Shown here: positions 27,382 through 47,692 of the stretch, piece after piece | How positions within the stretch are numbered: position 1 is the stretch's first letter | Layout of the letters: each line of letters starts with the position of its first letter | Assembly: GCA_964583285.1 (NCBI GenBank) | Contig: CAZOVD010000003.1 | Span: 1-62,379 of the forward strand | DNA: 62,379 nt | Source: an uncultured archaeon | GTDB lineage: Archaea; Iainarchaeota; Iainarchaeia; Iainarchaeales; JAAZKV01 | Reading direction: 5' to 3' | Translations under genes and position numbers: made by a program | Notes under the pieces: model-generated | Database searches by the model: none | The model's input: the letters and a program-made list of their open reading frames with translations, nothing else | Told to the model about the DNA's origin: nothing

Positions 27382-29412
27382 TTATTTAATCATTATTGCA
27401 TCGACTGCATAAGCACCGTTTTCGTTTACTATAACTGGATTCATTTCTATTTCTTTTAACAATGGATAATTTTGCGCCATTAATGCAGTTGCTTTTATTA
27501 CTTTTTTAAGATCATCAATATCATACTTTTTCTTTGTTCGCACACCCTGCAAAACTTTAGTTCCTTTTACTTCATGAAACATTTCCTCAATATCTGAATT
27601 TGAAAGTGGTGCAATTTTTTGAGAAAAGTCTTTCATTACTTCAACAAATATTCCACCAAGCCCATATGTAATAGTTTTGCCAAATTCGTTTGTAATTGAA
27701 GAAACAATTACTTCTTGCCCAACTATCATTTCTTGAACTGCGATTTCTTTTGATTTGTTAAGTTTTATAAGTATTTTTTGCATTTTTTCAAATTCTATTT
27801 CAGCTTCATCAATATTTTTTATGTTTGCTTTTACTAAACCAAGATCAGTTTTATGTGGTATCCCACTTGATGCTTTCATTGCAATTGGAAAATTTAATTT
27901 TCTTATAGCAATTTGAAATTCTTCAGCAGTAGAAACAAATTCTGTTTTACAAGTTTTTATTCCAAATTCTTTTAAGATACTAAATGCTGTTTTCATTTCA
28001 ATGATTTTAGAATTGTCAATTATCTTTTGAGTTTCTGACTTTGGATTTAAAGTTATTTCAAAAAATTTTTTGTGTTTTTTTCGTTCTATATATTTTTTCA
28101 AAATAGAGAGTGCTTTTATTCCTCTTTCAGGAGTAGCAAATTCAACAACACCATGTTCTCGCAAATATCTTCTTGAATGTTCAACACCAGTTCCACCCAA
28201 AAATGAACACATTATTGGTAAATTTTTATTTAAATCAACTATTATTTCTGCAACTCTATCTGGGTCCGTCATACTTTGAGGAGTTAGAAGTGTATAAACA
28301 ATATCCACATTATTATCTTCTTGTAAAACATTTAGAGCTGATCTATAATCAAGTGGTTTTGCATCTCCAATTAAATCAAGTGGATTTGACGCATGTGGGT
28401 TTATTTGAGTAACCACATCCATTGTTTTTTTAGTAAATCCTGGTAAAATAAAATCGTGATTTGCTGCAGAATCGGCAACAATTACCCCTGGCCCACCAGC
28501 GTTAGTTACAACTGCCATTCTAAATCCTTTTAAATTATCTATTTTTGATAACAACTTTGCCATATCAAAAAATCCTTCTATTGAATTCATTCGCATTATA
28601 TTTACTTTTTTGCAAGCTACAGAAAATATATGATCATCAACACTTAATGCACCGGTGTGAGAACTAGCTGCTTTAACACCCGCTTCACTTCTGCCGGATT
28701 TAATTAACACTACTGGTTTTTTCTTTGCTAAATTATGCGCAGCATGCATAAAGTCATTGTGATTTTTTACTGATTCCATATAAACTAAAACGGCTTTTGT
28801 TTTTGGATCATCAGCCAAATATCTAAAATAATCATCTTCTTCCATAAATGCTTTATTTCCTGTTGAAATAAATTTACTAAAACCAATTTTTTCTTGGCGA
28901 GCCCAGTCTAAAATTGCAGTACAAAGAGCACCACTTTGTGAAACTAATGCGATTTGTCCTTCGCGAGGAAAAGTTGCTGAAAAAGAAGCATTAAGTCCAT
29001 TCTCTGAATTAATTATTCCAAGTGTGTTTGGGCCAACAACGTTCATTTTGTATTTTTTAACAATAACATCAATACTATCCTGAAGTTTTTTTCCTTCTGA
29101 CCCAGTTTCACTAAAACCAGCAGTTATAATTACTGCATTTTTTATTCCTTTTTTTGCACAATTTTCCATTATTTGTGGAACAAATTTTGATGGAACTACT
29201 ACAACTGCCAAATCAATTTTTTTCTTTATTTTAAGAACTGATTGATATGCAGTTAGACCCAGTATCTCTTTTTCATTTAAGTTAATTGGGAATATATCTC
29301 CATTAAAATTAGCATCAATTAGATTTTTTACAATAGCATATCCAACTTTTCCAGGAGTATTAGATGCACCAATAACTGCCACTGAATTAGGATAAAACAT
29401 TTTAGTTAACAT
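27382..29412 (-). CDS. acetate--CoA ligase (ADP-forming), fused alpha/beta subunits
   Basis: CoA-binding domain (VAVIGASNTPGKVG), a succinyl-CoA-synthetase-like phosphohistidine region (SSHTGALS), and a C-terminal ATP-grasp. Length is 676 aa. Confidence 0.85.
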   Translation of the reverse strand: MLTKMFYPNSVAVIGASNTPGKVGYAIVKNLIDANFNGDIFPINLNEKEILGLTAYQSVLKIKKKIDLAVVVVPSKFVPQIMENCAKKGIKNAVIITAGFSETGSEGKKLQDSIDVIVKKYKMNVVGPNTLGIINSENGLNASFSATFPREGQIALVSQSGALCTAILDWARQEKIGFSKFISTGNKAFMEEDDYFRYLADDPKTKAVLVYMESVKNHNDFMHAAHNLAKKKPVVLIKSGRSEAGVKAASSHTGALSVDDHIFSVACKKVNIMRMNSIEGFFDMAKLLSKIDNLKGFRMAVVTNAGGPGVIVADSAANHDFILPGFTKKTMDVVTQINPHASNPLDLIGDAKPLDYRSALNVLQEDNNVDIVYTLLTPQSMTDPDRVAEIIVDLNKNLPIMCSFLGGTGVEHSRRYLREHGVVEFATPERGIKALSILKKYIERKKHKKFFEITLNPKSETQKIIDNSKIIEMKTAFSILKEFGIKTCKTEFVSTAEEFQIAIRKLNFPIAMKASSGIPHKTDLGLVKANIKNIDEAEIEFEKMQKILIKLNKSKEIAVQEMIVGQEVIVSSITNEFGKTITYGLGGIFVEVMKDFSQKIAPLSNSDIEEMFHEVKGTKVLQGVRTKKKYDIDDLKKVIKATALMAQNYPLLKEIEMNPVIVNENGAYAVDAIMIK

Positions 29413-29456: not shown

Positions 29457-31643
29457 CTAAATTTTTTCATTTTTTAGACGTACTGAGTTTAAAATTACAC
29501 TTATTGAACTAATAGTCATTGCACTCATACCAATCATTGGGTGTAATAATCCAAAAAATGCAATTGGTATTGCAATTATATTGTAAAACCAAGCCCAAAA
29601 TAAATTTTGTTTTATTTTTTTAAATGTCGCACGGCTTAATTTTATAGCCGAAACTACTCCGCTAAGATTTCCATTTACTAAAATTATATCTGCAGATTCT
29701 ATTGCAATATCAGTACCAGTGCCTATTGCAATACCAACATTTGCTTGCTTTAATGCTGGTGCATCATTAATACCATCACCAACAAAAGCAATCATTTCAT
29801 TTTTTTGAAGATCTATTATTTTTTGTGCTTTTTCATCAGGAAGTACATTTGCAATAATTTCATTTATTCCACACTCACTACCGATTGCTTTTGCAGTACG
29901 CTCATTATCGCCAGTAATCATAACTGTTTTAAAACCAAGATTATGTAATTTAGATATTGCTTCTTTTGAATCAGCTTTAATAATATCTGAGACAGCAATT
30001 ATTCCAATTATTTTTTTATTTTTAGCAACAATCATTATTGATTTCCCTTGGTTTTCAAAACTAACTATTTCTTTTTCAATATTAGTTAAACTAATTTTAT
30101 TTTCATTTAATAAATTTCTATTTCCAATTATTATATTATCATTTTTAATTTTACCAAAAACTCCTTTTCCACGAATTATACTAAAATTGTTTACTTTTAA
30201 TGTTGATATTTTATTTTTTTGTGCATAGTTAACAATTGCTTTTGCAATTGGATGTTCGGAAAGATTTTCAAGAGAACTTGCAATTTGTATTAATTCATTT
30301 TCACTAACACCCATTGTTTTTATTTCACAAATTTCTGGCTTTCCTTTTGTTATAGTTCCAGTTTTATCAAAAACAATTGTTTTAACATCTTTTATTGTTT
30401 GAATTGCTTCACCTCTTCTTATCAAAATTCCTTTTTTTGCACCAAGTCCAGAACTAACCATTAATGCTGTTGGAGTTGCAAGACCAAGAGCACAAGGACA
30501 AGCAATTACAAGCACTGCAACTGTTGCGAGTATTGCAAGTGTAAAAACTGGGGCGCTTGGATTAGTCCAAGGTAAATTAAAACCTTCAACTATTGGTACA
30601 AAAAAATTTGGAAATAATGTCCAAAAGACAAACGCAGAAATTGCAAGTATTATTACTGCTGGTACAAAATAACCAGTAACTCTATCAGCAAATTCTTGAA
30701 TTGGAACTTTACTACTTTGAGCTTCTTCAACAAGTTTTATTATTTGACTTAAAAAAGTGTCCTTTCCAATTTTTGTTGCTTTAATATATAAAACACCATC
30801 TTGATTTATTGTTGCTCCAATTACATTACTATTAACTTTTTTTTCAACCGGTAAACTTTCTCCAGAAATCATTGACTCATCAACACTACTTTCTCCTTTT
30901 ATTACAATACCATCAATTGGTATTTTTTCACCAGGCCTAACTATTAAAATATCGCCAAGTTTCACATCTTCTATTTTCACTTCTATTTCTTTATTTTTAA
31001 CAATTAATTTTGCTGTTTTTGCACCAAGTTTTAGAAGTTGTTTAATTGCCATTGATGCTTTTCCTTTAGCACGCATTTCAAGAAATCTTCCAATTAAATG
31101 AAATGTAACAATTGTTGTTGCCATTTCAATAAAAGTCGTTACTGGAAAAAAAAATCCTAAAAAACTTAAAAAATAAGGAACTACTGAACCAAGTGTTATT
31201 AATACATCCATATTGGCAGTTTTTCTTTTAAGTGATTTTATTGTAGACTTATGCGTATCAAAACCAAGAATAAAAATTACTGGAAATGCTAAAACCGCAC
31301 TTATTGCAAAATAATAAGGGACCATTACTACAAACATGTCAATAAACATTAGCAGCATTATAACTGCAGTTATAATTGATGCAAGTATTGTGTTTTTCTT
31401 TGCACGTTTATGTTCAATTAGTTCTGAATTGGCTTCATTTTCTTTTTCAATTATTTTATAACCAATACGCAATACTTCTTTTTTTACTTTTTCATCAGTT
31501 ATTTCACCAGAAATGTAAAGTTTTTTTGTTGCAAAATTAACAGATGCGCTTTCAACTCCATTAATATTCTTAAAAGATTTCTCTATAGTACTTGCACAAG
31601 TAGCACAGTGCATACCTTCAACTAAAAAAATTTTCTTAGACAT
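29457..31643 (-). CDS. copA: copper-translocating P1B-type ATPase
   Basis: N-terminal HMA domain (GMHCATCAS), TGES, CPC ([11 protein letters not shown]), DKTGT and GDGINDAP. Confidence 0.95.
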
Positions 31644-31655
31644 AATCTCATCTTT

Positions 31656-32111
31656 TTAAATAAACCTAAAACGACCTGCATCCAAATCGGATTTTTTTAT
31701 AAATACTTTGTCTTCAACCACACTATTTTTTAAATATCCTGGCCAACAACCGCCACCAGTTTTATTTTCAGTACCAAGTGAAGAAATTAAAAATTTATTT
31801 CCACAATTATTACAAACCATAAAATTGCCTTCTTGCCTATACCCTCTTTTTTCACTAAAACAAACATCACAAGCATCAAATGCGGTTTTTACATCGCCCA
31901 AATTATCTTTAACTGCAAAAAACCTTATTGTTACTCCGTTTGATTCATATACATACCAATTAGCAACAGTACTAATTTTTTCCATTTCTAAGAATATATA
32001 ATCATCATAGTTAACATTTCCACTTTCAAAATCTATGTCACTATTTGCTGTTGACGTGCAACCAAAAATAAACAACATAAATATTGCCAAAACAATCATA
32101 ATCTTTTTCAT
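31656..32111 (-). CDS. Cys-rich lipobox protein (DUF2318-like metal-binding module)
   Basis: Signal peptide ending in FIFGC. Also FDACDVC...GYRQEG...VCNNCGNKF...GGCWP. Sits between the HMA membrane protein and copA. Confidence 0.45.
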   Translation of the reverse strand: MKKIMIVLAIFMLFIFGCTSTANSDIDFESGNVNYDDYIFLEMEKISTVANWYVYESNGVTIRFFAVKDNLGDVKTAFDACDVCFSEKRGYRQEGNFMVCNNCGNKFLISSLGTENKTGGGCWPGYLKNSVVEDKVFIKKSDLDAGRFRFI

Positions 32112-33068
32112 TTAATCACCAATTATATTTATTGTACAAGCGCCTTGTGAAAAATCAAGTTGTGGAGTAAGTCCCACACTTTCAATTAAAAAGCGTTCAT
32201 AATTATTCCTATCACTTATTCTTTCTTCAAGAACCGTTGCTTTATAAGTATCAAATATTTCTAAATTTAATAAATCTTGTTTTGTAGCAGGAGCAACATA
32301 TGCAACTTCAAAAATATTTGGCATAGAATATCTAACTCCACTAACTCCATTAATTGTTTTAATATCCCCTGAAATTAAAGCAGCATGTCCAGAACAAGGA
32401 ATGTCTACTGCCAATTTTATTATAGAATTTTCACCATTTGATAAATTATTATTTGAATAATTAGTAGAAAAAAAACCAACATCAAAATTAGCAACAGCTG
32501 GGAATATTACAAATAATAGTAGTAAATTAATTCCAATAGTTGTGCCATACATTATGGAAATATAATTTCTTTTCTTACTTATTCCAGCTATTGAAACTAA
32601 ATTATTTTTTCTTAGATATAAATAAGTTCCAATAGTTGCAAACAAAAATGATAATGCTATTAGTATATGGAAAAAATATTGATTTAATAAAATGGGCCTA
32701 AAATAAGTTATAAGCAATGTCGAACCTAAAATTGATGCCACTATAAAACCAATACACCCAATGTGTGGCATTAAACCAAATGTTAATCCACTAATTAAGG
32801 AATTGTCTGTTTTTTTAGTAGACCCATTTATAGTATATCCTAAATTAAATATGGCTTCTTCTATTTGTTTTTTTGATATTTTATTATCATCAAAATTAAT
32901 ATCTGCACTATCATCAATAATACTCACATTTACCTTTATTACTCCATTAAGTTTTGATAATTTTTCTTCGATTAGTTTTGAACATGATGCGCAGTGCATC
33001 CCATTTATTTTGAACTTATAATTTTTCAAACAAATCACCTTTTTCATAAATATGGAGCGTGAAACCAT
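32112..33068 (-). CDS. HMA-domain membrane protein (HMA / ~4 TM / second ferredoxin-like domain)
   Basis: N-terminal HMA (GMHCASCSKLIEEKL), a TM block containing MPHIGCIG, and a C-terminal domain with CSGHAAL. There are two in-frame ATGs (33068 and 33047). Confidence 0.6.
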   Translation of the reverse strand: MVSRSIFMKKVICLKNYKFKINGMHCASCSKLIEEKLSKLNGVIKVNVSIIDDSADINFDDNKISKKQIEEAIFNLGYTINGSTKKTDNSLISGLTFGLMPHIGCIGFIVASILGSTLLITYFRPILLNQYFFHILIALSFLFATIGTYLYLRKNNLVSIAGISKKRNYISIMYGTTIGINLLLLFVIFPAVANFDVGFFSTNYSNNNLSNGENSIIKLAVDIPCSGHAALISGDIKTINGVSGVRYSMPNIFEVAYVAPATKQDLLNLEIFDTYKATVLEERISDRNNYERFLIESVGLTPQLDFSQGACTINIIGD

Positions 33069-34842: not shown

Positions 34843-34928
34843 AAAAAAAAGAGTTATTGATAAAATTTATAAATCGTGTTAAGTAGCGCACATTTAAAAA
34901 TAAAAAAAACCTAAATTTTTTGATTTTT

Positions 34929-35927
34929 ATGAAGGGTGCTTTTGACAATAATAAATATTTAAAACTTGAAAAAAAAATACTTTTAAAAAGAGCGAATAAA
35001 TTTAACACTTTATTTTTAGAAATTGGTGGACATTTGCTTTATGATGGGCACGCAAAAAGAGTGCTACCAGGATATGACCCAAAAAATAAATTGAATTTAA
35101 TTAAATCTTTGAAAAAAAAAGTTGGAGTAATTTATTGTGTTAGTGCTAAAGAACTTGCATTAAATAGAAATTGGGGAAATTCTAATAAAAAAATTAAAGA
35201 TGTTGCTCTTTTTGAATTAAAAAAATTATCAAAGGATTTAGAAATTATTGGGATTTGTATTAGTTTGTTTAATAACCAAAAAAAAGCAATTGATTTCGCA
35301 TTAACTGCTAGTGAAAAATTTTTAGTTCCAATATATTTTACAAGCATAATAAAAGATTACCCTAATTTAAAAACAACTTTTTCAAAAAATGGTTTTGATA
35401 TTCAACCCAAATTAAAAACTAAGAAAAAGATTGTTGTTGTTACTGGCGCTGGCGCAAATAATGGAAAATTATTTTTTTGTTTAAGTCAAATTTATCATCA
35501 AAACAAAGAAAATAAAAATGCAGGTTTTGCAAAAATTGAAACTTTTCCAGTTTGGGATTTAGATGTAAATCATCCACTAAATTTAGCTTACATGAGTGCT
35601 ACTGCTGATATTAAAGACAAAGTTTTAATAGATCATTTTTACAAAAAGAAATACAAAAAAATAGTAGTAAATTATAACAGAGATATTAAAGCATTTCCAG
35701 TTTTAAAAAAAATAATAAATAAATTAAGCAAAAAGAATAATTTTATGAATAATTATAATTCTCCGACAGAAATGGGTTTAAACGCACTAAGTAGTGGGAT
35801 TATTGATGAGAAAAAAATAGAAAGTGCTTGTAAAAAAGAAATCATAAACAGGAAAAAATCTTTTTTAAAATTAAAAAATAAAATGGCGGTAAAAGAAATA
35901 AATAATTTATTAAAAAAATTAAATTAG
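34929..35927 (+). CDS. DUF1846 (UPF0371)-like protein, short form
   Basis: FDNNKYLKLEKKILLKR...LFLEIGGHLLYDGHAKRVLPGYDP matches the DUF1846 N-terminus. It is 332 aa from ATG 34929, versus roughly 500 aa as I recall for typical members. Confidence 0.5.
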   Translation: MKGAFDNNKYLKLEKKILLKRANKFNTLFLEIGGHLLYDGHAKRVLPGYDPKNKLNLIKSLKKKVGVIYCVSAKELALNRNWGNSNKKIKDVALFELKKLSKDLEIIGICISLFNNQKKAIDFALTASEKFLVPIYFTSIIKDYPNLKTTFSKNGFDIQPKLKTKKKIVVVTGAGANNGKLFFCLSQIYHQNKENKNAGFAKIETFPVWDLDVNHPLNLAYMSATADIKDKVLIDHFYKKKYKKIVVNYNRDIKAFPVLKKIINKLSKKNNFMNNYNSPTEMGLNALSSGIIDEKKIESACKKEIINRKKSFLKLKNKMAVKEINNLLKKLN

Positions 35928-36391
35928 AGTTTTTTATAAACTTCAGTTTCACCAAATCTGCTTAACACGGTAAATCCTAATTTTTTATATGTTTTATGCC
36001 CCATTAGTACTGATTTTGCTTGAACATAACTAACTCCTTTTTTCTTTAAAATTTTTAAAACATTTTCAAGCATTTTTGAATAAAGTCCACTAACTCGTTC
36101 ATTTTCAACTATGCTTGGCCAATCAATAAAAGCATCTAAAAAATTACCAGTTTTTCTTAAATTGACCCTCATTTCTCCAATTTTTTCTTTTTGGGAATTT
36201 AATAATTCTATTTCATATCTATTTTTTTCTAAGACAAAATTAATTGTTTGAATATATCTTTTTCCATTAATATTTATTATTCTCAAAGTAGCCTTAGGAT
36301 TCGCTGTTTTTTTTGGTTTTATTTTTCTTAACAAAACTGCCTTTGATTTTTGTTTTGAATTTAATAAAGGGATTGTATTTTTTTTAATCAT
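35924..36391 (-). CDS. small basic protein with a GNAT-like C-terminal half (155 aa)
   Basis: Its ATGA start overlaps the phosphomevalonate kinase stop. IGEMRVNL...ERVSGLYSKMLENVLKILKKKG...HKTYKKLGFTVL resembles GNAT motifs A/B. Paralogous in pattern to ORF 37518-38000. Confidence 0.4.
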   Translation of the reverse strand: MIKKNTIPLLNSKQKSKAVLLRKIKPKKTANPKATLRIININGKRYIQTINFVLEKNRYEIELLNSQKEKIGEMRVNLRKTGNFLDAFIDWPSIVENERVSGLYSKMLENVLKILKKKGVSYVQAKSVLMGHKTYKKLGFTVLSRFGETEVYKKL

Positions 36392-37503
36392 TCTAAGTAA
36401 ACACCTTCCTTTGAAATATTTGCGTTTATTAAGTATATATTATTTATTTTCCATTCTTTTTCAATTAATTTTTTTGTTTCTTTATTAAAACTAATAGCAA
36501 TCCCACAATCTCCTCCCCCTGCCCCAGAAAATTTTCCAGCCCCGCCAAACTTTTCTGCAATGTTAGAAAGTAGTGTTAGTTCAGCAGTTTCTAAATTATT
36601 ATTACTTTTGTCATTTAGTTCTTTTAAAAATATTCTATTTTTTTTAAGCAAGTCAATTATTAATTCTTGATTTCCTAATCTAATAGCATAAATTAACTTC
36701 GTAGTTATATTTTTTATTTCATTTATTAAATTATTATAATCTACTAAATTTTTTTCTTTAAATTCTTGTATTTTTAAAACTAATTCTTTTGTTGATGCAC
36801 TATAGCCAACAAAACCAATACTTAAAAAAAAATCTTTTGGTAAATCTATTTTTTCTACTTTAAAATATGGCCAATTCATTTCAACTATTTCTTTTATTAA
36901 AAAAGTTTCATTTAATTTTTTGGTTATAACTTCCATGTCTGGTTTTTGATAAACTATAACTCCGCCATAAGTAGAAGCTGCAACATCAAAGCTACTTCCA
37001 AGTTTTCCTTGTGCAAAATAATGTGCAATACAACCTAACTTATAAATTATTTCTTTTGATTTGTTTGATTCTATTTCAAAGTTATGAATTTTGAGTACTG
37101 CTGCAACAGTTGCAGTAACTATTGCTGCACTTGAACCAAACCCAACTTTTGCTTTTTTATTTTCACCAATATCAATTTGAGTGTCACTTGAATTTGTTTT
37201 AATTGAAAAATTTCTTACTTTTATATTGTTTTCAGTCAGATATAATAATGTTGTTTCAACTGATTTTGTTACAAATAAATAAAATGCCTTTTCATTTTCA
37301 CTCCCAAATGTTTCTAATTTATTATTTTTAAAAACAGCTTTTAATTTTAAATCATTAGAACTTGTAGAAAAATTTATTTCTCCATTTTCTTTTATTTCTA
37401 CACTTACTTTTTGGTCAATTGCCATTACAATGCATGGCACATCATTTTCAAGAACACTCCATTCTCCTGAAAGCATTAACTTTCCAGGCGCACTAATTTT
37501 CAT
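36388..37503 (-). CDS. mvaK2: phosphomevalonate kinase (ERG8/bacterial mvaK2 type)
   Basis: APGKLMLSGEWSVLE, GHMP motif GFGSSAAIVTA, and SGAGGGDCGIA near the C-terminus. ATG 37503 has GGAG upstream. Confidence 0.85.
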   Translation of the reverse strand: MKISAPGKLMLSGEWSVLENDVPCIVMAIDQKVSVEIKENGEINFSTSSNDLKLKAVFKNNKLETFGSENEKAFYLFVTKSVETTLLYLTENNIKVRNFSIKTNSSDTQIDIGENKKAKVGFGSSAAIVTATVAAVLKIHNFEIESNKSKEIIYKLGCIAHYFAQGKLGSSFDVAASTYGGVIVYQKPDMEVITKKLNETFLIKEIVEMNWPYFKVEKIDLPKDFFLSIGFVGYSASTKELVLKIQEFKEKNLVDYNNLINEIKNITTKLIYAIRLGNQELIIDLLKKNRIFLKELNDKSNNNLETAELTLLSNIAEKFGGAGKFSGAGGGDCGIAISFNKETKKLIEKEWKINNIYLINANISKEGVYLE

Positions 37504-37517
37504 ATAAACTATCTCCT

Positions 37518-38000
37518 TCAAATAATTTTTTTTCTTGATTTTCTAATATTGCTAATTATTTTTTTTCTTATTAATTTTAACCCCTTCTTTTGAGAATAAC
37601 CTTTTTTTATTTCTCTTCCTAATAATCCTCTTTTTTTTAATTGTTTTACTCTATTATTCATAATATCCGTTGAATGTTTTATTTTAAAATCAGGATATTT
37701 TATTCTTGTAGCAAGTAAAAATTTTCTTTCAAGGAGCGTAGCAAGTCCAATATTTCTTGCGTTTGTTCCTAAATTTACTATTGGTTCATATAAAGACCAT
37801 TCTAGTTTTTTTTCTTCTTTATTCACTTTTATTTCCATTCTGCCAACTGGATCTCCATAAGCGAATTTTTTAAGCAATTCATTTATTTTTTCACTGGTAA
37901 CAAAGTTATTTGTATTCTTTTGACCATAAGCAGTATTTAAATTAGCAACAAAATTTTGGCCTCTTTCTAAAAAGGTTATTTTTATTCCTTTATTTTCCAT
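37518..38000 (-). CDS. small protein with a GNAT-like core and a Lys/Arg-rich tail (160 aa)
   Basis: ATG 38000 lies 5 nt after the MDD stop (TGAtttttATG). VGRMEIKV...ARNIGLATLLERKFLLA...NRVKQLKKRGLLG aligns in pattern with ORF 35924-36391. Confidence 0.4.
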   Translation of the reverse strand: MENKGIKITFLERGQNFVANLNTAYGQKNTNNFVTSEKINELLKKFAYGDPVGRMEIKVNKEEKKLEWSLYEPIVNLGTNARNIGLATLLERKFLLATRIKYPDFKIKHSTDIMNNRVKQLKKRGLLGREIKKGYSQKKGLKLIRKKIISNIRKSRKKII

Positions 38001-38005
38001 AAAAA

Positions 38006-38995
38006 TCAAAATAAATGTTTATCTACGATTCTTGGGCCTGTCCCTGGTTTACATTCAATTATTTCATTTACGCCAATGCTATTTAATTCTTTTTTTAAAA
38101 ATTCAACATCTTTTTGTTGACAAATTATCTTTGCTTGTGGGCCGCCATCAATTGTGAAATAAGCTTCAATACCTTGATCTTGTAATTCTAAAATTTTATG
38201 AATTACTTCAATAGTGCCTGCTTGCCAATAAAATATACTTGGTCTTGTTGTCATTGCACACGCATGCATTAAAATACAGTTATCTTGTGCAAGTCTTCCA
38301 AGTTCTTTAAAATTTTTTTCTTTTATTAATTCAACCATTTTTTTTGCGTCTTTTTCTGCTTCTTGATACCATGTCTTAAAAATTGGCGAAGTTTCTACAC
38401 TTTGTTTCATACCTGCTCTTGACTTTACTTTTTTTTGTTTTTTTGATATTACACAACCAAGTATTCTAAATTCTGGCCAATGTTCTTTTGGTTTTATTTG
38501 CTCTGCAAAACTACTTTCGCTTGTTTCTCCACTATGCCATATTGCAAACCCATCAATTAAACTTCTAGAAGCACTTCCACTACCCATTCTTGCTAAAATA
38601 CTTAGTTCTTTTGTTGAAAGATTAAGTCCAATAGCTTTACTTGCAGCAAAAGTTAGTGCGGCAAGCCCTGATGCGCTTGAGGCAAAACCAGCAGCAGTAG
38701 GAAAATTATTTTCACTAACTGTTTTTGCTTTTGTATTAATATTAGCTTTTTTTCTAATAATATTTAATTGTTCTACTACTTCATCATATTCAGCTTGTCC
38801 TTTAAAATATTCTTTTTTATCAAGAATAAAAATATCTTCTTTGTATTTATCACTAAACTCAACAGTTGTTGTTGTTTCTAAACCTTCAAGAGTAACACTA
38901 GTATTTGAATTCCAAGGGGTTTTAAGTCCATCATTTTTTTTGCCCCAATATTTTGTTAATGCAATATTAGCATTTGCTTTTACTGTTACTTTCAT
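38006..38995 (-). CDS. mvaD: diphosphomevalonate decarboxylase
   Basis: ANANIALTKYWGKKN, GFASSASG, GSGSASRS, TIDGGPQ. ATG 38995 follows GGGTGAT, which contains the MVK stop codon. Confidence 0.85.
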   Translation of the reverse strand: MKVTVKANANIALTKYWGKKNDGLKTPWNSNTSVTLEGLETTTTVEFSDKYKEDIFILDKKEYFKGQAEYDEVVEQLNIIRKKANINTKAKTVSENNFPTAAGFASSASGLAALTFAASKAIGLNLSTKELSILARMGSGSASRSLIDGFAIWHSGETSESSFAEQIKPKEHWPEFRILGCVISKKQKKVKSRAGMKQSVETSPIFKTWYQEAEKDAKKMVELIKEKNFKELGRLAQDNCILMHACAMTTRPSIFYWQAGTIEVIHKILELQDQGIEAYFTIDGGPQAKIICQQKDVEFLKKELNSIGVNEIIECKPGTGPRIVDKHLF

Positions 38996-38999
38996 AAAA

Positions 39000-39935
39000 T
39001 CACCCAATTGTTGTTAATGTAACTTCATAGCCTGCCTTTTTTATTTTTTTTGCTACAGCTTCTTGAAGTTCTTTTGTAGGGGTTAGTGCAATTACACTAC
39101 CGCCCCTGCCCGTCCCAGTTAGTTTGGCACTTATTGCACCAGCTTTTTTTGCATCATCAATAATATTTTCAAGTAAGTCACTTGAAACATTTATTTTTCT
39201 TAAAAGTTCTTGATTCTTTTCCATCAATTCTGCAATTTTTTCTATATTAAAATTAGCAATTGCAATTTTCGCTTCTTGAACAATTTTTTCATACTCATTC
39301 AAAATTTTTGCAAATTCTTCTTCATCTGCTTCTTTTAATTTTCTTACATCATCAACTACTTCTTTTGTAAGCGCTGCTTTACCAGAATTTATTAAAACTA
39401 TTTCTAGAGGTTTTTTTATTTTAAGCGACTCAATTTTGTTTTCTTTGCCACTTAAATTTTTTTGAAAAATTAAGAATCCGCCATATGCTGCGCAAGTATT
39501 GTCTATTCCACTAGGCGTTCCGCTTCCTGCAGTTTCTCCAGCATATGCTGCGTTATTTATTTCTTCCTTACTTAAATTCAAATTAAATTCTTCACTTATT
39601 GCTTCACTTATTGCTACGGCCGCAGCAGCACTTGCTCCAACACCACTAGCGGGAACTAAATCTCCACTAAGTGTTATTTTAACTTTTTCCTTTATATTTA
39701 AATAATTTAAAATTGCTTTTATTATATTATCATATTCTTCTTTTTTCTTTATTTTATAATCGCCATTATCTGGCCTATTATCAATTAATTCATATTCAAA
39801 GGGTTTGTTTTTTTCTAAAATTTCAACTTCGCAAATAGTTTTTTGACCCAAAGCACAAGGTATTCCTGGTAAACCATATACTACAAAATGTTCTCCAAAT
39901 AGGATTGTTTTTCCAAATCCACTGCCTTTTCCCAT
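39000..39935 (-). CDS. mvk: mevalonate kinase
   Basis: GKTILFGEHFVVYG, GVGASAAAAVA, TPSGIDN, KLTGTGRGGSVIAL. ATG 39935 follows GGTGA-AACAA. Confidence 0.9.
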   Translation of the reverse strand: MGKGSGFGKTILFGEHFVVYGLPGIPCALGQKTICEVEILEKNKPFEYELIDNRPDNGDYKIKKKEEYDNIIKAILNYLNIKEKVKITLSGDLVPASGVGASAAAAVAISEAISEEFNLNLSKEEINNAAYAGETAGSGTPSGIDNTCAAYGGFLIFQKNLSGKENKIESLKIKKPLEIVLINSGKAALTKEVVDDVRKLKEADEEEFAKILNEYEKIVQEAKIAIANFNIEKIAELMEKNQELLRKINVSSDLLENIIDDAKKAGAISAKLTGTGRGGSVIALTPTKELQEAVAKKIKKAGYEVTLTTIG

Positions 39936-40023
39936 TTGTTTCACCAAAAATATAATAAGATTGAATTAAATAATGTTTTTAATTACTTTGAATTAAAAAT
40001 AAAGATAAATTTTGTTTAAATAG

Positions 40024-40422: not shown

Positions 40423-40575
40423 TTTATCTCACTTTCCTAAAAACATGAACTACTGCAGTTGCTCCACTTGCACTTTTTGTCGCTGATGCGTCAAAACCTG
40501 CACTAAAAATGCTACGCAATAAAATCATTTTATCTCACTTTCCTAAAAACATGAACTACTGCAGTTGCTCCACTT
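40420..40575. repeat. 50-bp perfect direct repeat (40420-40469 and 40526-40575) with a 56-bp unique spacer
   Basis: cattttatctcactttcctaaaaacatgaactactgcagttgctccactt occurs twice with a 106-bp period. Confidence 0.9.
40424..40528 (-). pseudogene. 34-codon stub ORF ending with the thiolase C-terminus (MILLRSIFSAGFDASATKSASGATAVVHVFRKVR)
   Basis: Its last 14 codons, stop and downstream TAAAATG junction are nucleotide-identical to the 3' end of the intact thiolase gene. It carries the same RBS context as DUF35. Confidence 0.6.
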
Positions 40576-41687
40576 CCACCAACATTATGTGTTATCCCAA
40601 CTTCTGCATTTTTTACTTGTCTTTTATTTGCTTCTCCGCGTAGTTGCATTGTTGCTTCTATTGCTTGTTTTACTCCAGTTGCTCCAACTGGGTGTCCACA
40701 TGCTTTAAGTCCACCACTAGTATTTACTGGGTGTTTACTATCAAAATAAGTTTCTTTATTTTCATATAATTTATACGCTTCTCCTTTTTTTGCAATTCCA
40801 AGTGCTTCTGTAGCCATTATTTCTGCAATTGTAAAACAATCATGTACTTCTGCAAAATCAATGTGTTGTGCAGTTATTCCTGCTTGAGAATATGCTACTT
40901 CGGCCGCTTTTTTTCCAGCAGGTATTTCATATAAACTTTTTCTTCTTGCAAGTGACAAAGTATCATTTGCAAGACCTGAACCAGTAATAAAAACATCAGT
41001 TCCAAGTTTTTTTGAAACTTTTTCGCTTGCAAGTATTATTGTCGCACTTCCATCAGTTATTGGAGAGCAATCAAAAAGTGTTAATGGATTTGCAACCATT
41101 GTTGCATTTTTTACTGTGTCAATTGTTATTTCATTTTTGAATTGACAATAAGAGTTTCTTGCTCCGTGAAAGTGATTTTTTACTGCTACTTCTGCTAAAA
41201 GGTCTCTTGTTAATTTTGGAAATTCAAACATGTAAGCATTTGCCATTAATGCATAAAGTCCTGGAAAAGTTAAACCATTAAATCCCTCAAGTTCTTCATC
41301 CCCAGCACCCATCAGTGCAGTTGTTACTGCGCCAGTATCAACGTCAGTCATTTTTTCTATACCATTAACCATTGCAATATCTACTTGGCCTGCTTCTATT
41401 GCATGAACCGCTTGGCGTATTGCAAGACCCCCGCTAGCACAAGCACCTTCAACTCTTATACTTGGTTTATCTAAATTTAAATTTTCTGCAGCCATTGCAC
41501 CTAAGTGAAGTTGTCCACTAAGTGGCCCGCTTGCCATATTTCCAGTATAAATCGCATCAATTTGTTCTGGTGCGATTTTTGCATCATTAAGCGCATTAAG
41601 TTGTGACTCAAGGAGTAATTCTCTTAATCCTTTATTCCAAATTTCTCCAAATTGAGTTATTCCTATGCCAAGAATACCAACTTTCAT
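40530..41687 (-). CDS. acetyl-CoA C-acetyltransferase (archaeal-type thiolase)
   Basis: Active-site Cys region (VEGACASGG) and C-terminal GHPVGATG...NVGGSG. Length is 385 aa. Confidence 0.9.
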   Translation of the reverse strand: MKVGILGIGITQFGEIWNKGLRELLLESQLNALNDAKIAPEQIDAIYTGNMASGPLSGQLHLGAMAAENLNLDKPSIRVEGACASGGLAIRQAVHAIEAGQVDIAMVNGIEKMTDVDTGAVTTALMGAGDEELEGFNGLTFPGLYALMANAYMFEFPKLTRDLLAEVAVKNHFHGARNSYCQFKNEITIDTVKNATMVANPLTLFDCSPITDGSATIILASEKVSKKLGTDVFITGSGLANDTLSLARRKSLYEIPAGKKAAEVAYSQAGITAQHIDFAEVHDCFTIAEIMATEALGIAKKGEAYKLYENKETYFDSKHPVNTSGGLKACGHPVGATGVKQAIEATMQLRGEANKRQVKNAEVGITHNVGGSGATAVVHVFRKVR

Positions 41688-41802: not shown

Positions 41803-42072
41803 TCAATTATTTCCTTTTTTCTTTTTTCCAAATCCTTTTATTCCATCATAACCCTTTGCAAATTTTGGATTATAACCTACCTTTGTGCCACTATCCCTAA
41901 CTTCCATTTGAAGTTTGTATTCTGGTCTTATTTTTGACATTTCAATTAATCTTTTTTCCATTGCTGCAACTTTACTCGCATCAACCATTCCACTTTTAGA
42001 ACCCTTAAATCCACCAACTTCAACTCTTGCAACAACATGTTTTTGTCTGTTTCTTCTTATAGGCCCAACCAT
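41803..42072 (-). CDS. hypothetical basic protein (89 aa) between HMG-CoA synthase and thiolase
   Basis: AAAGGTGA sits 5 nt upstream of ATG 42072. Translation begins MVGPIRRNRQKHVVARVEVGGFKG and ends GFGKKKKGNN. No motif recognised. Confidence 0.55.
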   Translation of the reverse strand: MVGPIRRNRQKHVVARVEVGGFKGSKSGMVDASKVAAMEKRLIEMSKIRPEYKLQMEVRDSGTKVGYNPKFAKGYDGIKGFGKKKKGNN

Positions 42073-42083
42073 AAAATTCACCT

Positions 42084-43286: not shown

Positions 43287-44117
43287 ATGCCTTTAAAAAA
43301 ACAAGTTAGAAGAAACACTACAAAAAAAAGAAGAAAATTTTCAAATCAATCTCGTTTAATGGCGGACGCAAGAATGCTTTCAAAAGGAATTAATACTTTA
43401 TACCAAGGAAAAATTGAAACTAACCCAAGTGAAAGATATGGTGCTAACGAAAGCCAAGTAGTATTAAAGAGAAGTTTAAAATCACAATTAAGATGTAAAA
43501 TTTCTAGTGCAATAGAAACTTCAAAAATCACAAAAAATCCATTAAAAATTATTAGTGCATTTATTAGAGAACAAAATATTGGAGAATATAGAAATGGGCC
43601 GGTAGCTGAAGAAGGTTATGAAAAAAGAGATAATGGTAGAATTAGAATTACAAAAAAAAAAGGAACATATTACAAAAATCGTAAAAAATATAGAGCTGCT
43701 TTAATGCATGAATTTTTTCATTCAACTCACATACCACCTAATGATGTCGGTGCACATGCATTTGAAAATTATCTTGAAAATAAATTAAATAAATCAAAAT
43801 TAAAAAGAACTTCTCAAGACATTGTTAATAGAGCAATTGCTCTTGAAATATTATTAAAAAAACTTAATGAAATGAAACTTGGAGAGTATGAAACAAAAAA
43901 CAAGATGTCTCCAGCAAAAGTTGGAGAAGAACTTGGAATTATTGCTAATGATATAGAACTTCAAACAGGAAAAAGAGGATCAGGGTTATTTTTTTTAAAA
44001 GAGATATTAATTGGAAAAAGCGCAACACACACTATTTCAAGAATTTCTAAAAATGAATTTGACAAAGAAATAAGAGCATGGCTTAAAATGAATCCAAGAC
44101 TTGCGAGGTTATTATAA
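43287..44117 (+). CDS. hypothetical basic protein with an HExxH motif (LMHEFFHSTH)
   Basis: 276-aa ORF with a Lys/Arg-rich N-terminus and an HEFFH motif at about residue 150. Its stop overlaps the next gene's ATG. Confidence 0.5.
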   Translation: MPLKKQVRRNTTKKRRKFSNQSRLMADARMLSKGINTLYQGKIETNPSERYGANESQVVLKRSLKSQLRCKISSAIETSKITKNPLKIISAFIREQNIGEYRNGPVAEEGYEKRDNGRIRITKKKGTYYKNRKKYRAALMHEFFHSTHIPPNDVGAHAFENYLENKLNKSKLKRTSQDIVNRAIALEILLKKLNEMKLGEYETKNKMSPAKVGEELGIIANDIELQTGKRGSGLFFLKEILIGKSATHTISRISKNEFDKEIRAWLKMNPRLARLL

Positions 44118-44902
44118 TGCAAAAAAATAAAGTCACACAAGGTTTAAAATTTAACGAAAAATTTGGAAAAATGAATTTTGGAGAAAAACGAAGTAAAGTG
44201 AGAAATGATCTTGCGCAAAGAATTAGAAGTTCAAGATTTGTTGATAGACATTCTGGTTGGGAAGTTAGAAGAAGTTTATTAAAATATCAAACAATGCTAA
44301 AAATTGATTTTGGATTATTATTGACAAATATGCTAAAAAAACATAAAAGGTTAAGAGTTCTTGATATTGGTTGCGGAGCAGGTTATTTTTTAAATGAATT
44401 AAAAAATTTTGATAGGAAAAGAATTGAAACTCACGGCATAAGAACAACTTTAAATGGATCCCCCTATCTAGGAGATGTTGAAAAATTAGATAAAGAAATG
44501 ACAAAAAAAATGGACTTGCTACACATAGGGAGTTTTGAAAATTATAAATTTAAAACAAAGTTTAATATTATTGTTTCTACGATTGGGAGCGTTTACACTG
44601 CAAGTCAAGCACACACCATACAAAAAATTTGTTCGCTTCTTGAAGTTGGCGGAGTTAGTGCAATAATAATTCCAAAAAAAGGAGTTTCAAAATCTTTACT
44701 AAATGAAATAACAAAAACAGGTTATAAAATAAAAGTTGAAACTAAACAAGTTAGAAAAAGAAATGGTGAAATTGATAGATTAAGAATTTTAAAAATAAGA
44801 AAAACTACTAATAGTGTTCCAAATTTAAGTAATTTTATTTTAAAAGAAATAAATAAAGGAATAGATGTTACTGTAAACCCAAGAATTGCTGAATTTTCTT
44901 AA
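44117..44902 (+). CDS. class I SAM-dependent methyltransferase
   Basis: Motif I is RVLDIGCGAGYFLNEL, and the spacing of later motifs fits a Rossmann-like fold. Confidence 0.7.
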   Translation: MQKNKVTQGLKFNEKFGKMNFGEKRSKVRNDLAQRIRSSRFVDRHSGWEVRRSLLKYQTMLKIDFGLLLTNMLKKHKRLRVLDIGCGAGYFLNELKNFDRKRIETHGIRTTLNGSPYLGDVEKLDKEMTKKMDLLHIGSFENYKFKTKFNIIVSTIGSVYTASQAHTIQKICSLLEVGGVSAIIIPKKGVSKSLLNEITKTGYKIKVETKQVRKRNGEIDRLRILKIRKTTNSVPNLSNFILKEINKGIDVTVNPRIAEFS

Positions 44903-44908
44903 AAAATA

Positions 44909-46210
44909 TTATTTTCTTATTTTTTTAATTATTTTTTCCGCACTACTTTGCGAAACGTTTTTTTCTTCAAGCATTTTTTTTACAACTTCATTAATTTCAC
45001 TTTCTTTTGCACCTGCCTGAAAAGCAATATTTTTTGCATGAAGTTTCATATGTCCTTCTTGAATACCACTACTAACAAGTGCTCTAAGTGCTGCAAAATT
45101 TTGAGCAAGACCAACGCTAGCAATAATACTTGCAAGTTCACTAGCTGATTTTACATTAAGTATTTTTAAATTCATTTGAGCAAGTGGGTGAATTTTTGTC
45201 ACGCCGCCTATAGTTCCAATAGCAAGAGGAATATCTATTTCGCCAACTAAATCACCATCTTTATTCTTGTAAAATTTTGTAAGTGGCGAATATTTTTCTT
45301 CAAATGCACTAAATGCGTGTGCGCCCGCTTCTATCGCACGAAAATCATTTCCAGTTGCAATTACTACTGCATCAATTCCATTCATTATCCCTTTATTATG
45401 TGTTGCGCATCTAAAAGGAGAACTAACTGCAAATTCATAAGCATCAAGAATTCTTTCTATTACTTTTTCACCACTTAAAAGTCCTTTTGTACTTTCTTGC
45501 AAAATGTTTTTTTTCCAAATTGTTTTTGCTTGTGCTCGTCTATAAATTGCTAGATTTGATAATATTTTTAATAAAACTTCACCATTAGAATATTCTTCTA
45601 TTTTTGGAGCTATTTTTTCAAGCATGGTATTTATTGCATTTGCACCCATTGCATCTTTTACATCAACCAGTATTTTAACATCAAGCATTTCTCCCCTTTT
45701 TGTTTTTAATATTTCAATAGTTAAGTCGCGTGGACCTCCCCCAGCTTTTATTAAATTAGATTCTTTATTAATTAATGAATTTAATATTTCTTTTTTATTT
45801 TTTAAAATATTTTCTTTGGCTATTTTTGTATTTTTACATTTAATAACTTGTAATTGACCTATCATTATTGAATCATCAACATTTGTTATAAATCCGCTTG
45901 AAAGTTTTGCTGCGTTGCTTGCAGCTGCAACCACACTAGCTTCTTCTATAACAAATGGAACTATATAGTCTTTTCCATTAATATTAAAATTGGTTGCAAC
46001 ACCAAGAGGAAGTGAAAAATTGCCCACTACATTTTCTATCATTTGATTAGCAGTTTCTAGTTTTAAAGAGCCTTCTTTATTTAGTAAACTAACTTCAACA
46101 TCGGTTAAACTAAATTCTTTTTTAAGTAAATTCTGTCTTTCTAAAATATTTTTTTTGTAAAAACCTTCAAAATTTTTTTTATTTATAAAATCACCTAAAA
46201 CTCTTCCCAA
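44909..46210 (-). CDS. mvaA: HMG-CoA reductase, class II
   Basis: ENVVGNFSLPLGVATNFNINGKDYIVPFVIEEASVVAAASNAAK, DAMGANAIN, and about 430 aa in length. No in-frame ATG occurs near the 5' end: there is a TTG at 46210 and an ATA at 46186. Confidence 0.85.
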   Translation of the reverse strand: MGRVLGDFINKKNFEGFYKKNILERQNLLKKEFSLTDVEVSLLNKEGSLKLETANQMIENVVGNFSLPLGVATNFNINGKDYIVPFVIEEASVVAAASNAAKLSSGFITNVDDSIMIGQLQVIKCKNTKIAKENILKNKKEILNSLINKESNLIKAGGGPRDLTIEILKTKRGEMLDVKILVDVKDAMGANAINTMLEKIAPKIEEYSNGEVLLKILSNLAIYRRAQAKTIWKKNILQESTKGLLSGEKVIERILDAYEFAVSSPFRCATHNKGIMNGIDAVVIATGNDFRAIEAGAHAFSAFEEKYSPLTKFYKNKDGDLVGEIDIPLAIGTIGGVTKIHPLAQMNLKILNVKSASELASIIASVGLAQNFAALRALVSSGIQEGHMKLHAKNIAFQAGAKESEINEVVKKMLEEKNVSQSSAEKIIKKIRK

Positions 46211-46412: not shown

Positions 46413-46940
46413 TTATTTAGAAAATTTTTCTTTAACAATTTCCCACCCGGGATGAGTTATAATTATTTTAAACCACGCAGTATATTTTTTTGGATCATAA
46501 TAAATATCTTTCATTAATTCATCTACATTAATCCATTTATACTCGCTAACTTCATTAGGGTTTGGTTTTATTTCACCATCATAAACTCCAACAAATGTTT
46601 GATCCATTTCATATTCTGCTAAACCATTTAAAAATTCTGCATAATATGTAAATTTATAAAATGGAGTAAGTTCACATGAAAATCCCATTTCTTCAGGCAA
46701 TCTTCTTTTTGCAGCATCTAAATAAGTTTCGTTCATTCTTGGGTGTGTACAACAAGCATTTGTCCAAAGACCAGGGCAATGATATTTTGAATCAGCGCGC
46801 CTATGAAGTAGCATTTCGCCATTTTTATTAAAAATTAATACTGAAATTGCCCTATGTAACTTAGGGTTTTTATGTGCACTCATTTTTTCTTCTTTTCCAA
46901 CCACATTATCATTAAAATCTACAAGCACTACTTCTTCCAT
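46413..46940 (-). CDS. idi: isopentenyl-diphosphate delta-isomerase, type 1 (Nudix)
   Basis: LHRAISVLIFNKNGEMLLHRRADSKYHCPGLWTNACCTHP and a downstream E...E pair. AAGGAGAA sits upstream of the ATG. Confidence 0.85.
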   Translation of the reverse strand: MEEVVLVDFNDNVVGKEEKMSAHKNPKLHRAISVLIFNKNGEMLLHRRADSKYHCPGLWTNACCTHPRMNETYLDAAKRRLPEEMGFSCELTPFYKFTYYAEFLNGLAEYEMDQTFVGVYDGEIKPNPNEVSEYKWINVDELMKDIYYDPKKYTAWFKIIITHPGWEIVKEKFSK

Positions 46941-47007: not shown

Positions 47008-47691
47008 TTAAATTATTAATTCGCTACCATCTCCAAAAGCACTTTTTGATGCTAATTTATCTTTTTCTACAAAAGCATCATATTTTTTTCCCAGAACTAA
47101 TTTTGCATAACTACTTTCAAGATCCCCAAGCATCATAAGTAATACTCTATTAAGAATAATTGGCTTTGAACCATGAAGTGTAGTTGGAAGTAAAATGTGA
47201 TCTACTCGTTCAACTATTCCTGGATTATAATCAAGATCGTGTTTTGGGCCAGTTTGATTTTTCAAACTTGCATCAATACTTTTTTCAATCCAACTTACAA
47301 AATCTATTGATTTTGGATCACTTTTTTTATTAGATAAACCTTTTCCATGAATATCAATTAATAATTCTTTATTTCTTCTAACAAAATCTTTTATTTCAAG
47401 AGCTGCATTAAGCGAAACAACTTGACCTTGATATGCTTTCATGCCAGCCATTGCAAATGGCGTTATTTCACAAATTTTATCTATTTGAGCTTTGCTAAGT
47501 CCAAAAGCGGACAGTAATTTTTTTTTAGAACTAAGATAAACATTAAATCTTTGTTTAAAAAAAGAATGATCATTTAATCTCATAACTTGTACTCTTGATT
47601 TTTTCCCATGTTTGTTACGAACACTAAATATGTTTTTTTTAAATGGAGAAAATTTTTTCTTAACAGTATCCCACCATTTTTTTCCAACCAT
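47008..47691 (-). CDS. hypothetical protein (227 aa) between GGPP synthase and IDI
   Basis: ATG 47691 lies 1 nt after the GGPPS stop (the track start at 47709 is a TTG). It has a basic N-terminus (MVGKKWWDTVKKKF). No motif recognised. Confidence 0.5.
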   Translation of the reverse strand: MVGKKWWDTVKKKFSPFKKNIFSVRNKHGKKSRVQVMRLNDHSFFKQRFNVYLSSKKKLLSAFGLSKAQIDKICEITPFAMAGMKAYQGQVVSLNAALEIKDFVRRNKELLIDIHGKGLSNKKSDPKSIDFVSWIEKSIDASLKNQTGPKHDLDYNPGIVERVDHILLPTTLHGSKPIILNRVLLMMLGDLESSYAKLVLGKKYDAFVEKDKLASKSAFGDGSELII

Positions 47692-47692
47692 A

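Follow-up and report, generated by a model that had tools for sequence, protein, structure and literature searches.

Two small genes with no detectable relation to each other flank phosphomevalonate kinase in an Iainarchaeia mevalonate operon, one probably encoding a divergent GNAT-fold protein

Gene layout around phosphomevalonate kinase

We examined two small open reading frames (ORFs), named ORF-A and ORF-B, that lie on either side of the phosphomevalonate kinase (PMK) gene in a mevalonate operon of an uncultured archaeon. The stretch analysed, hereafter the window, comprises 62,379 nucleotides (nt) of contig CAZOVD010000003.1. The source archaeon belongs to Iainarchaeia/“Diapherotrites” within DPANN, and the best matches of its PMK were proteins of metagenome-assembled genomes (MAGs) labelled Candidatus Diapherotrites or Iainarchaeum. 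The GC content of the window was 23–35%. Eukaryote-type sets of mevalonate kinase (MVK), PMK and diphosphomevalonate decarboxylase (MDD) have already been described for some DPANN archaea (PMC11052028, PMC6107057). The genes and sites around PMK are as follows.

38006–39007, minus strand: MDD; TIGR01240, 279.7 bits; Pfam MVD-like_N and MDD_C
37518–38000, minus strand: ORF-A, 160 amino acids (aa), isoelectric point (pI) 10.4; DPANN-restricted small family, fold unassigned
37513–37517, minus strand: AGGAG, Shine-Dalgarno-like site of PMK, adjoining the ORF-A stop, with 9 nt between it and the PMK ATG; read from sequence
36388–37503, minus strand: PMK (GHMP type, ‘Gram-positive’ PMK); TIGR01220, 235 bits against a cut-off of 165.7; Pfam GHMP_kinases_N and GHMP_kinases_C
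36388–36391, minus strand: ATGA, in which the PMK stop and the ORF-B start overlap; read from sequence
35924–36391, minus strand: ORF-B, 155 aa, pI 10.3; predicted truncated GNAT-fold core, β2-β3-β4-α3-β5-α4-β6
34920–35927, plus strand: convergent DUF1846 gene; Pfam PF08903, E 3e-88

The scores of MDD and PMK both exceeded the NCBIfam equivalog cut-offs, and homologs of PMK carry the PMK name in Diapherotrites and Iainarchaeum MAGs. The MDD stop TGA (38008–38006) is followed by a 5-nt spacer and the ORF-A ATG at 38000, and the ORF-A stop TGA (37520–37518) by a 14-nt spacer and the PMK ATG at 37503. Upstream of the ATGA overlap, at a distance of 11 nt, lies GGAAGGTG (36409–36402). These coordinates and junctions, read directly from the sequence, were exactly those reported in an earlier sequence-only reading of this DNA, which had described A and B as two paralogous GNAT-like proteins translationally coupled to PMK. 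The spacing agrees with such coupling, but coupling is what the spacing alone would suggest, and PMK has a Shine-Dalgarno-like site of its own. Because the start of ORF-B overlaps the stop of PMK, the two most likely share an mRNA on which ribosomes ending PMK re-initiate at ORF-B. At the other end of ORF-B, its stop (TAA, minus strand) overlaps the stop of the convergent DUF1846 gene (TAG, plus strand) at 35924–35927, which leaves no intergenic room for a terminator; in the related loci L079 and L005 (L numbers are our handles for retrieved loci), this junction is a 6-nt overlap and a 15-nt gap, respectively.

Both ORFs are genuine genes

Neither ORF of the window matched Pfam or NCBIfam, and a word-indexed search of 5.8 billion proteins retrieved only ORF-A and ORF-B themselves, results that would suit spurious open frames in AT-rich DNA. 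Against this, when 1.84 billion cluster representatives were searched exhaustively with HMMER, 18 further clusters were found for ORF-A at E<1e-3 (members 157–206 aa long; 19 clusters with ORF-A), and three syntenic orthologs were found for ORF-B. These homologs are 30–42% identical and share conserved motifs, indicating that both ORFs are real, fast-evolving genes. In addition, both fit exactly into the intergenic space between well-defined genes. The explanation that one or both frames are spurious is effectively refuted by these conservation data, and we would give it next to no weight.

ORF-B has a probable GNAT fold

Three independent lines of evidence concur in giving moderate support to a GNAT fold for ORF-B. 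The first is the ortholog in L009, which matched Pfam Acetyltransf_1 (E 5.9e-4; 20.5 bits against a cut-off of 20.7) as well as Acetyltransf_9 and Acetyltransf_7; the NCBI (PGAP) name of this protein, MEK6958680.1, is ‘GNAT family N-acetyltransferase’. Secondly, the B-family profile matched the HAT domain of Tetrahymena GCN5 (tGCN5) in the PDB over 116 columns, with an E value that went from 0.009 with three sequences to 0.004 with four. The alignment covered tGCN5 residues 25–137, and the next matches were Naa30, PaiA and other N-acetyltransferases. Thirdly, the best single-sequence AlphaFold model of ORF-B (pLDDT 68, pTM 0.60; the other four of five models were poor) was searched with Foldseek, and the top 28 PDB matches were all GNATs, including GNA1, AAC(6')-Ih, serotonin N-acetyltransferase, Hat1 and Hpa2 (best E 5.5e-4, TM ~0.45–0.5, ~100 columns).

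Both the model and the alignments indicated that the fold of ORF-B starts at about the level of α2/β2 and that the β1-α1 arm is missing, with a Lys/Arg-rich, apparently disordered N-terminus at residues ~1–33. Motif A of GNATs (Q/R-x-x-G-x-G/A) reads R-V-S-G-L-Y in ORF-B. At its end, α4 carries a Tyr-x3-Gly-Phe motif whose residues, Y135, G139 and F140, we found unchanged in all four B sequences. The Tyr of this motif is the general acid in many GNATs. Since ORF-B keeps the motif, we infer that the protein still binds acyl-CoA and probably transfers an acyl group to some amine; catalysis by what would be a divergent, minimal GNAT is plausible from its residues.

Several observations weigh against this assignment. 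ORF-B of the window gave no GNAT profile match even at E≤10 and did not reach the curated threshold, and the GNAT call comes from an ortholog just below the Pfam cut-off, a marginal PDB match (E 0.004) and one confident model out of five. All four B orthologs have Phe or Tyr at the last motif-A position, and the central Gly is replaced by Glu in L079. At the position aligned to the catalytic Glu of GCN5, ORF-B has Phe, L009 has Arg, and Glu is present in L005 and L079. As this position is not kept, ORF-B could be a pseudo-enzyme, and its non-canonical pyrophosphate-binding loop would also allow a purely CoA-binding or partner-binding role.

ORF-B is linked to PMK, and the PMK junctions are variable

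The conservation of A and B was analysed in 12 relatives with PMK 57–72% identical to that of the window, whose loci were retrieved through PMK homologs, GTDB and metagenomes. B was present in three of the 12 and A in one. The occupants of the two PMK-flanking slots are listed below, with PMK identity in brackets.

L001 (72%): MDD and PMK abut; PMK is followed by an unrelated opposite-strand ORF of 230 aa
L003/L007 (69%): MDD and PMK abut; PMK is followed by an unrelated opposite-strand ORF of 251 aa
L005 (68%): a frameshifted A between MDD and PMK; after PMK, B
L079 (65%): nothing between MDD and PMK; after PMK, B
L009 (57%): nothing between MDD and PMK; after PMK, B
L078 (65%): nothing between MDD and PMK; after PMK, other genes
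L016 (61%): nothing between MDD and PMK; contig ends after PMK
L008, L080 (62%): HAD hydrolase between MDD and PMK (with further genes in L080); after PMK, other genes
L010, L011 (59–60%): other genes between MDD and PMK; after PMK, other genes

The contig of L016 ends just after PMK, so that B cannot be scored there. Orthologs of ORF-B lie directly 3' of PMK in L005, L079 and L009; with the window included, B directly follows PMK in all four genomes that have it, and the same 4-nt overlap of the two genes occurs in three of the four (junctions at 6089/6086 in L005 and 6113/6110 in L079). The gene of L005, which overlaps the PMK stop in this way, is 35% identical to ORF-B over 103 aa. In L009 the neighbourhood downstream of B differs and B is still attached to PMK. 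This arrangement is real evidence of linkage between the two genes. We read B as a fast-evolving, N-terminally truncated member of the GNAT (acyl-CoA N-acyltransferase) fold that is inherited with PMK in a sub-clade. The linkage has to be weighed against the search design, in which B was sought only in PMK-centred loci, so that B copies elsewhere would escape. A metagenome scan with the PMK alignment listed matches with PMK ≤46% identical, and among the matches listed none had A or B.

The two genes had been described as bracketing PMK, a statement that is true of the window but does not extend to its relatives as a unit. When co-occurrence was checked, the closest relatives (PMK 72% and 69%) lacked both genes, both were found in one relative and only B in two. 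Consistent co-occurrence of A or B with PMK, as for a conserved component of the mevalonate operon, was not found among the 12 relatives.

Other genes occupy the same places. The MDD-PMK junction holds a GNAT in L014 (6438–6935), a HAD protein in L008 (6271–6954) and L080 (3001–3681), a Na/Ca exchanger in L013 (6001–6945), and a Nudix protein, probably isopentenyl diphosphate isomerase (IDI), in L015 (5019–5522) and L018 (2455–2973). In more distant DPANN relatives, Nudix/IDI genes were found in PMK-adjacent slots of L015, L018, L019, L020, L022 and L033, and an HD-like protein is also among the occupants of the variable slots in relatives. Thus, the junctions around PMK are permissive slots, hot spots of gene turnover in Iainarchaeia operons, and this turnover calls for caution in inferring function from adjacency in compact genomes.

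Two of these occupants were noted in their own right. The HAD gene recurs inside the mevalonate operon (L008, L080), and, in the two relatives closest by PMK identity, a conserved basic ORF of 230–251 aa takes the place of ORF-B on the opposite strand (L001:3031–3723, minus; L003:2187–2942, minus). The copies of this ORF are 51% identical, resemble neither A nor B and carry no recorded Pfam domain.

ORF-A belongs to a separate small DPANN family

The family of ORF-A has the core motifs G-I-x-I-x-Y, F-x-T-x-P, W-x-x-Y-x-P, G-I-A-x-L-L-E, F-P-x-x-K-x-x-x-H and R-x-x-Q-L-x-K-R-G, and its members also share a basic tail. The conserved core residues of ORF-A itself are G85, E91, P103, R117 and Q120, and its C-terminal tail is basic and helical. 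Searches of Pfam, NCBIfam and PHROGs with the 19 members gave no GNAT match and no other family that recurred, and a metagenome locus search with a three-sequence A alignment found no relative. Against the PDB, full and core-only profiles gave non-significant matches only: NAT16 (E 0.25–0.29) on the R-G-K-G-V-A motif-A region, malonyl-CoA decarboxylase (E 1.7), which has a GNAT fold, and an unrelated TetR-family protein (E 0.12). The AlphaFold model of ORF-A was poor (pLDDT 53), and the Foldseek list of this model was headed by SpeG acetyltransferases at E≥0.3 and TM ~0.24–0.25. One family member is named ‘predicted GNAT family acetyltransferase’ in IMG.

The order of predicted secondary-structure elements in A, together with the pattern Y-x-P...R-x-x-G-I-A...F-P-x-V-K...R-x-x-Q-L-K-K-R-G, resembles β4-α3-β5-α4 of GNATs, a resemblance that has no statistical support, and the α4 Tyr of GNATs is missing in the family. 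GNAT-fold proteins are over-represented among the non-significant top matches, so that A may be a GNAT derivative after all, a point that counts against treating it as unrelated to B. We put a GNAT origin of ORF-A at roughly even odds.

We then compared the genomic contexts of nine family copies in eight genomes. Only two, in the window and in L005, lie between MDD and PMK, and the others are distributed as follows.

L164, 6001–6567: directly after EF-2, overlapping its stop by 4 nt, in an S12-S7-EF-2-EF-1α-S10 cluster
L165, 6001–6474: begins 4 nt downstream of Sua5, in a region with ribosomal protein genes and, nearby, Kae1/TsaD
L163: between PPIase and SMC
L161: near NMD3
L166: adjoins Hjc and a Toprim gene
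L167: adjoins CorA and an A-type ATPase
L005, second copy: intact paralog beside DUF1846

With seven of the nine copies away from PMK in unrelated contexts, A does not generally flank PMK, and the position of ORF-A in the window appears to be an incidental, lineage-specific insertion rather than a sign of a pathway function. The L005 copy at the MDD-PMK junction is 42% identical to ORF-A over 86 aa. This gene (L005:4393–4943) is split by a frameshift at the poly-A run CAATCAAAAAAGAAA, with profile positions 4–49 in one frame and 54–170 in another, and is identical in L006 (contigs from two runs). The split may reflect programmed frameshifting, pseudogene formation or an error of assembly.

The tight packing of A genes in translation clusters (L164, L165) hints at a role of the family in translation or RNA biology. 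In an alternative explanation, A and B are both small, non-catalytic basic proteins associated with nucleic acid or the ribosome, with A as a translation or RNA factor and the operon position reflecting gene packing in a compact genome. Both proteins have a pI >10 and long Lys/Arg-rich tails, A genes follow EF-2 and Sua5 and lie near ribosomal protein genes, Kae1/TsaD and NMD3, the CoA loop of B is degenerate, and compaction is extreme, to the point that convergent stop codons overlap. Nevertheless, the contexts with SMC, Hjc and CorA/ATPase are unrelated to translation, a Lys-rich composition is expected at a genome GC of 25–30%, and the Tyr-x3-Gly-Phe of GNATs is invariant in B. We consider this explanation unlikely, though it deserves more weight than the other alternatives.

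ORF-A and ORF-B show no detectable relation to each other

The proposed paralogy of the two proteins was not borne out by pairwise alignment or profile–profile comparison. The best BLASTP E value between A and B was 1.6, and hhalign gave a probability of 0.6% with three-sequence profiles and 0.25% with 19 A sequences against four B sequences. The strings that had been quoted as a shared pattern do exist in both ORFs, but the similarity between A and B does not go beyond chance. Profile searches and structure prediction likewise divided the description ‘GNAT-like’: it suits ORF-B, given the Pfam match and PGAP name of the ortholog, the GCN5 profile match and the Foldseek result, and is not demonstrated for ORF-A.

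These results bear on the explanation that A and B are paralogous mini-GNATs acting on the mevalonate pathway, for instance as scaffolds or by acetyl-CoA-dependent modification of lysines in PMK or its other enzymes, and so tying flux to the supply of acetyl-CoA. B would fit such a role, being GNAT-like and in fixed synteny with PMK in four genomes, and A contributes its GNAT-like motif pattern and weak, GNAT-enriched match lists. The second, unrelated GNAT in the MDD-PMK slot of L014 also speaks for it, as it means that a GNAT inside the operon recurs. Furthermore, an ADP-forming acetyl-CoA synthetase (27382–29412, minus strand; CoA_binding, Succ_CoA_lig, ATP-grasp_5) lies a few kilobases from the PMK end of the operon in the window, and is also near PMK in three relatives (L003, L005, L079), indicating that an acetyl-CoA-related neighbourhood is conserved. 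On the other hand, A and B lack similarity to each other, most examined A copies are in unrelated contexts, one or both genes are missing from relatives that have the same operon, the L005 copy of A is frameshifted, and B does not conserve the residues at its catalytic and CoA-loop positions. We regard a paralogous pair of this kind as distinctly improbable.

A bolder variant fares slightly worse. In it, B would be a PMK-coupled mini-GNAT of Iainarchaeia that modulates the eukaryote-type, probably horizontally acquired pathway in response to acetyl-CoA, physically or catalytically, such as through binding or acetylation of PMK, and A would be a complementing, diverged half-domain with the N-terminal arm that B lacks, B in turn providing the C-terminal strands that A lacks. 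We give this proposal only a slim chance. B might conceivably exert acetyl-CoA-dependent control of the pathway, with its patchy distribution weighing against this, and the joint pathway role that had been suggested for A and B is unsupported.

The isoprenoid cluster of the window

The remaining genes of the cluster lie upstream of MDD.

39000–39947, minus strand: MVK; TIGR00549, 220.5 bits
40024–40422, minus strand: DUF35/OB-fold protein; Pfam matches
40530–41687, minus strand: thiolase, identified via the L079 gene with a Thiolase Pfam match
41803–42081, minus strand: orf92, 92 aa
42084–43133, minus strand: HMG-CoA synthase (HMGS), identified via the L079 gene with an HMG_CoA_synt Pfam match
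44909–46210, minus strand: HMG-CoA reductase (HMGR); Pfam PF00368, 5e-105
46413–46940, minus strand: Nudix protein, probably IDI type 1; Pfam PF00293, 6e-23
47008–47709, minus strand: unassigned 233-aa ORF
47693–48802, minus strand: polyprenyl synthetase; Pfam PF00348, 1e-65

The order on the minus strand is polyprenyl synthetase, the 233-aa ORF, Nudix, HMGR, two plus-strand genes, HMGS, orf92, thiolase, DUF35, MVK, MDD, ORF-A, PMK and ORF-B. HMGS, thiolase and DUF35 are 70–84% identical to their L016 counterparts, and thiolase and DUF35 are 70–77% identical to those of L009. Because the window holds all the enzymes of the pathway, including the Nudix/IDI, A and B are extras and neither supplies a missing step. 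The possibility that A or B substitutes for IDI, considered because relatives have Nudix genes in the same slots, was ruled out: the Nudix gene of the window adjoins HMGR, and neither ORF matched Nudix.

Some further features were observed in and around the cluster. A third small basic ORF, orf92, is wedged between HMGS and thiolase, which have no ORF between them in relatives (they abut or overlap in L016 and are 36 nt apart in L079). No homolog of orf92 was found in 167 fetched loci, and its exact sequence was absent from the protein collection. The frame may be spurious, or it may represent one more lineage-specific insertion. The two plus-strand genes (43287–44902) that break the cluster between HMGR and HMGS encode a basic 276-aa protein without a family and a class-I S-adenosylmethionine methyltransferase (Methyltransf_31, E 1e-7). 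On the minus strand at 29457–33068 lies what appears, from translations, to be a copper or heavy-metal module, consisting of a 728-aa P-type ATPase with an N-terminal GMHCATC metal-binding motif, a lipoprotein-like ORF of 151 aa and a membrane protein of 318 aa that has GMHCASC. Rfam and tRNA scans of the window gave no matches.

Interpretation

Based on these data, we think it probable, with room for doubt, that A and B are genuine, unrelated accessory genes in two variable junctions of a eukaryote-type mevalonate operon, with the layout MVK-MDD-[A]-PMK-[B], in which B would be a divergent GNAT and A an incidental presence. In addition to the points raised above, it counts against this interpretation that the only public runs containing the sequence are DNA runs, from an activated-sludge metagenome study. 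B would be a modest, clade-specific accessory and a very divergent member of a known superfamily whose name is already attached to one related MAG protein. The annotation of the locus can be corrected to one divergent GNAT and one uncharacterised, DPANN-specific family of small basic proteins (19 clusters) that merits naming and a structural study. If B does act on PMK or the pathway, it would be a first example of an acetyl-CoA-sensing accessory built into a mevalonate operon and, moreover, a minimal GNAT scaffold of ~115 residues.

Comparison with known systems

ORF-B shares with the GNAT superfamily (PF00583; tGCN5 1QST, GNA1, AAC(6'), serotonin N-acetyltransferase) a core of β-sheet, α3, β5, α4 and β6, an alignment to tGCN5 over ~115 residues, R-x-x-G at the β4-α3 junction and Y-x3-G-F ending α4. 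It differs in a predicted fold that is ~40 residues shorter, with a basic disordered tail in place of the β1-α1 arm, in Phe/Tyr instead of Gly/Ala at the last motif-A position, and in a catalytic Glu that is not conserved. Its ortholog MEK6958680.1 (L009, JBBSVX010000013.1; 30% identity) likewise stands directly after PMK, in a thiolase-DUF35-...-MVK-MDD-PMK operon, but with an 86-nt gap to PMK instead of the ATGA overlap and with other downstream genes, and its annotation uses a later start, giving 136 aa.

ORF-A may be compared with two kinds of protein. In L014 (Candidatus Iainarchaeum UBA10205), the slot between MDD and PMK is filled by HIH10373.1, a small ‘GNAT family N-acetyltransferase’. 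In contrast to ORF-A, this protein exceeds the Acetyltransf_1 cut-off (26.8 bits) and is a canonical GNAT; it was considered as an ortholog of A or B and rejected, having no detectable relation to either family. RimI and the archaeal Ard1-type N-terminal acetyltransferases are small GNATs tied to translation, and A genes are found directly after Sua5 near Kae1/TsaD, and after EF-2. In bacteria, rimI usually has the t6A genes tsaB and tsaD as neighbours. Unlike these enzymes, the A family has no significant sequence or fold match to any GNAT, so that the likeness is a resemblance only.

The literature searched contained no account of a GNAT as part of a mevalonate operon, and to that extent the view that such proteins are not part of any described operon seems fair, but at least two related MAG records carry GNAT annotations inside the operon. 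The operon of Gram-positive bacteria, mvaK1-mvaD-mvaK2(-fni/idi), has the same MVK-MDD-PMK order as the window and a PMK of the same TIGR01220 type. It differs from the window, where the Nudix-type IDI lies ~8 kilobases away together with HMGR and polyprenyl synthase, and where A and B flank PMK.

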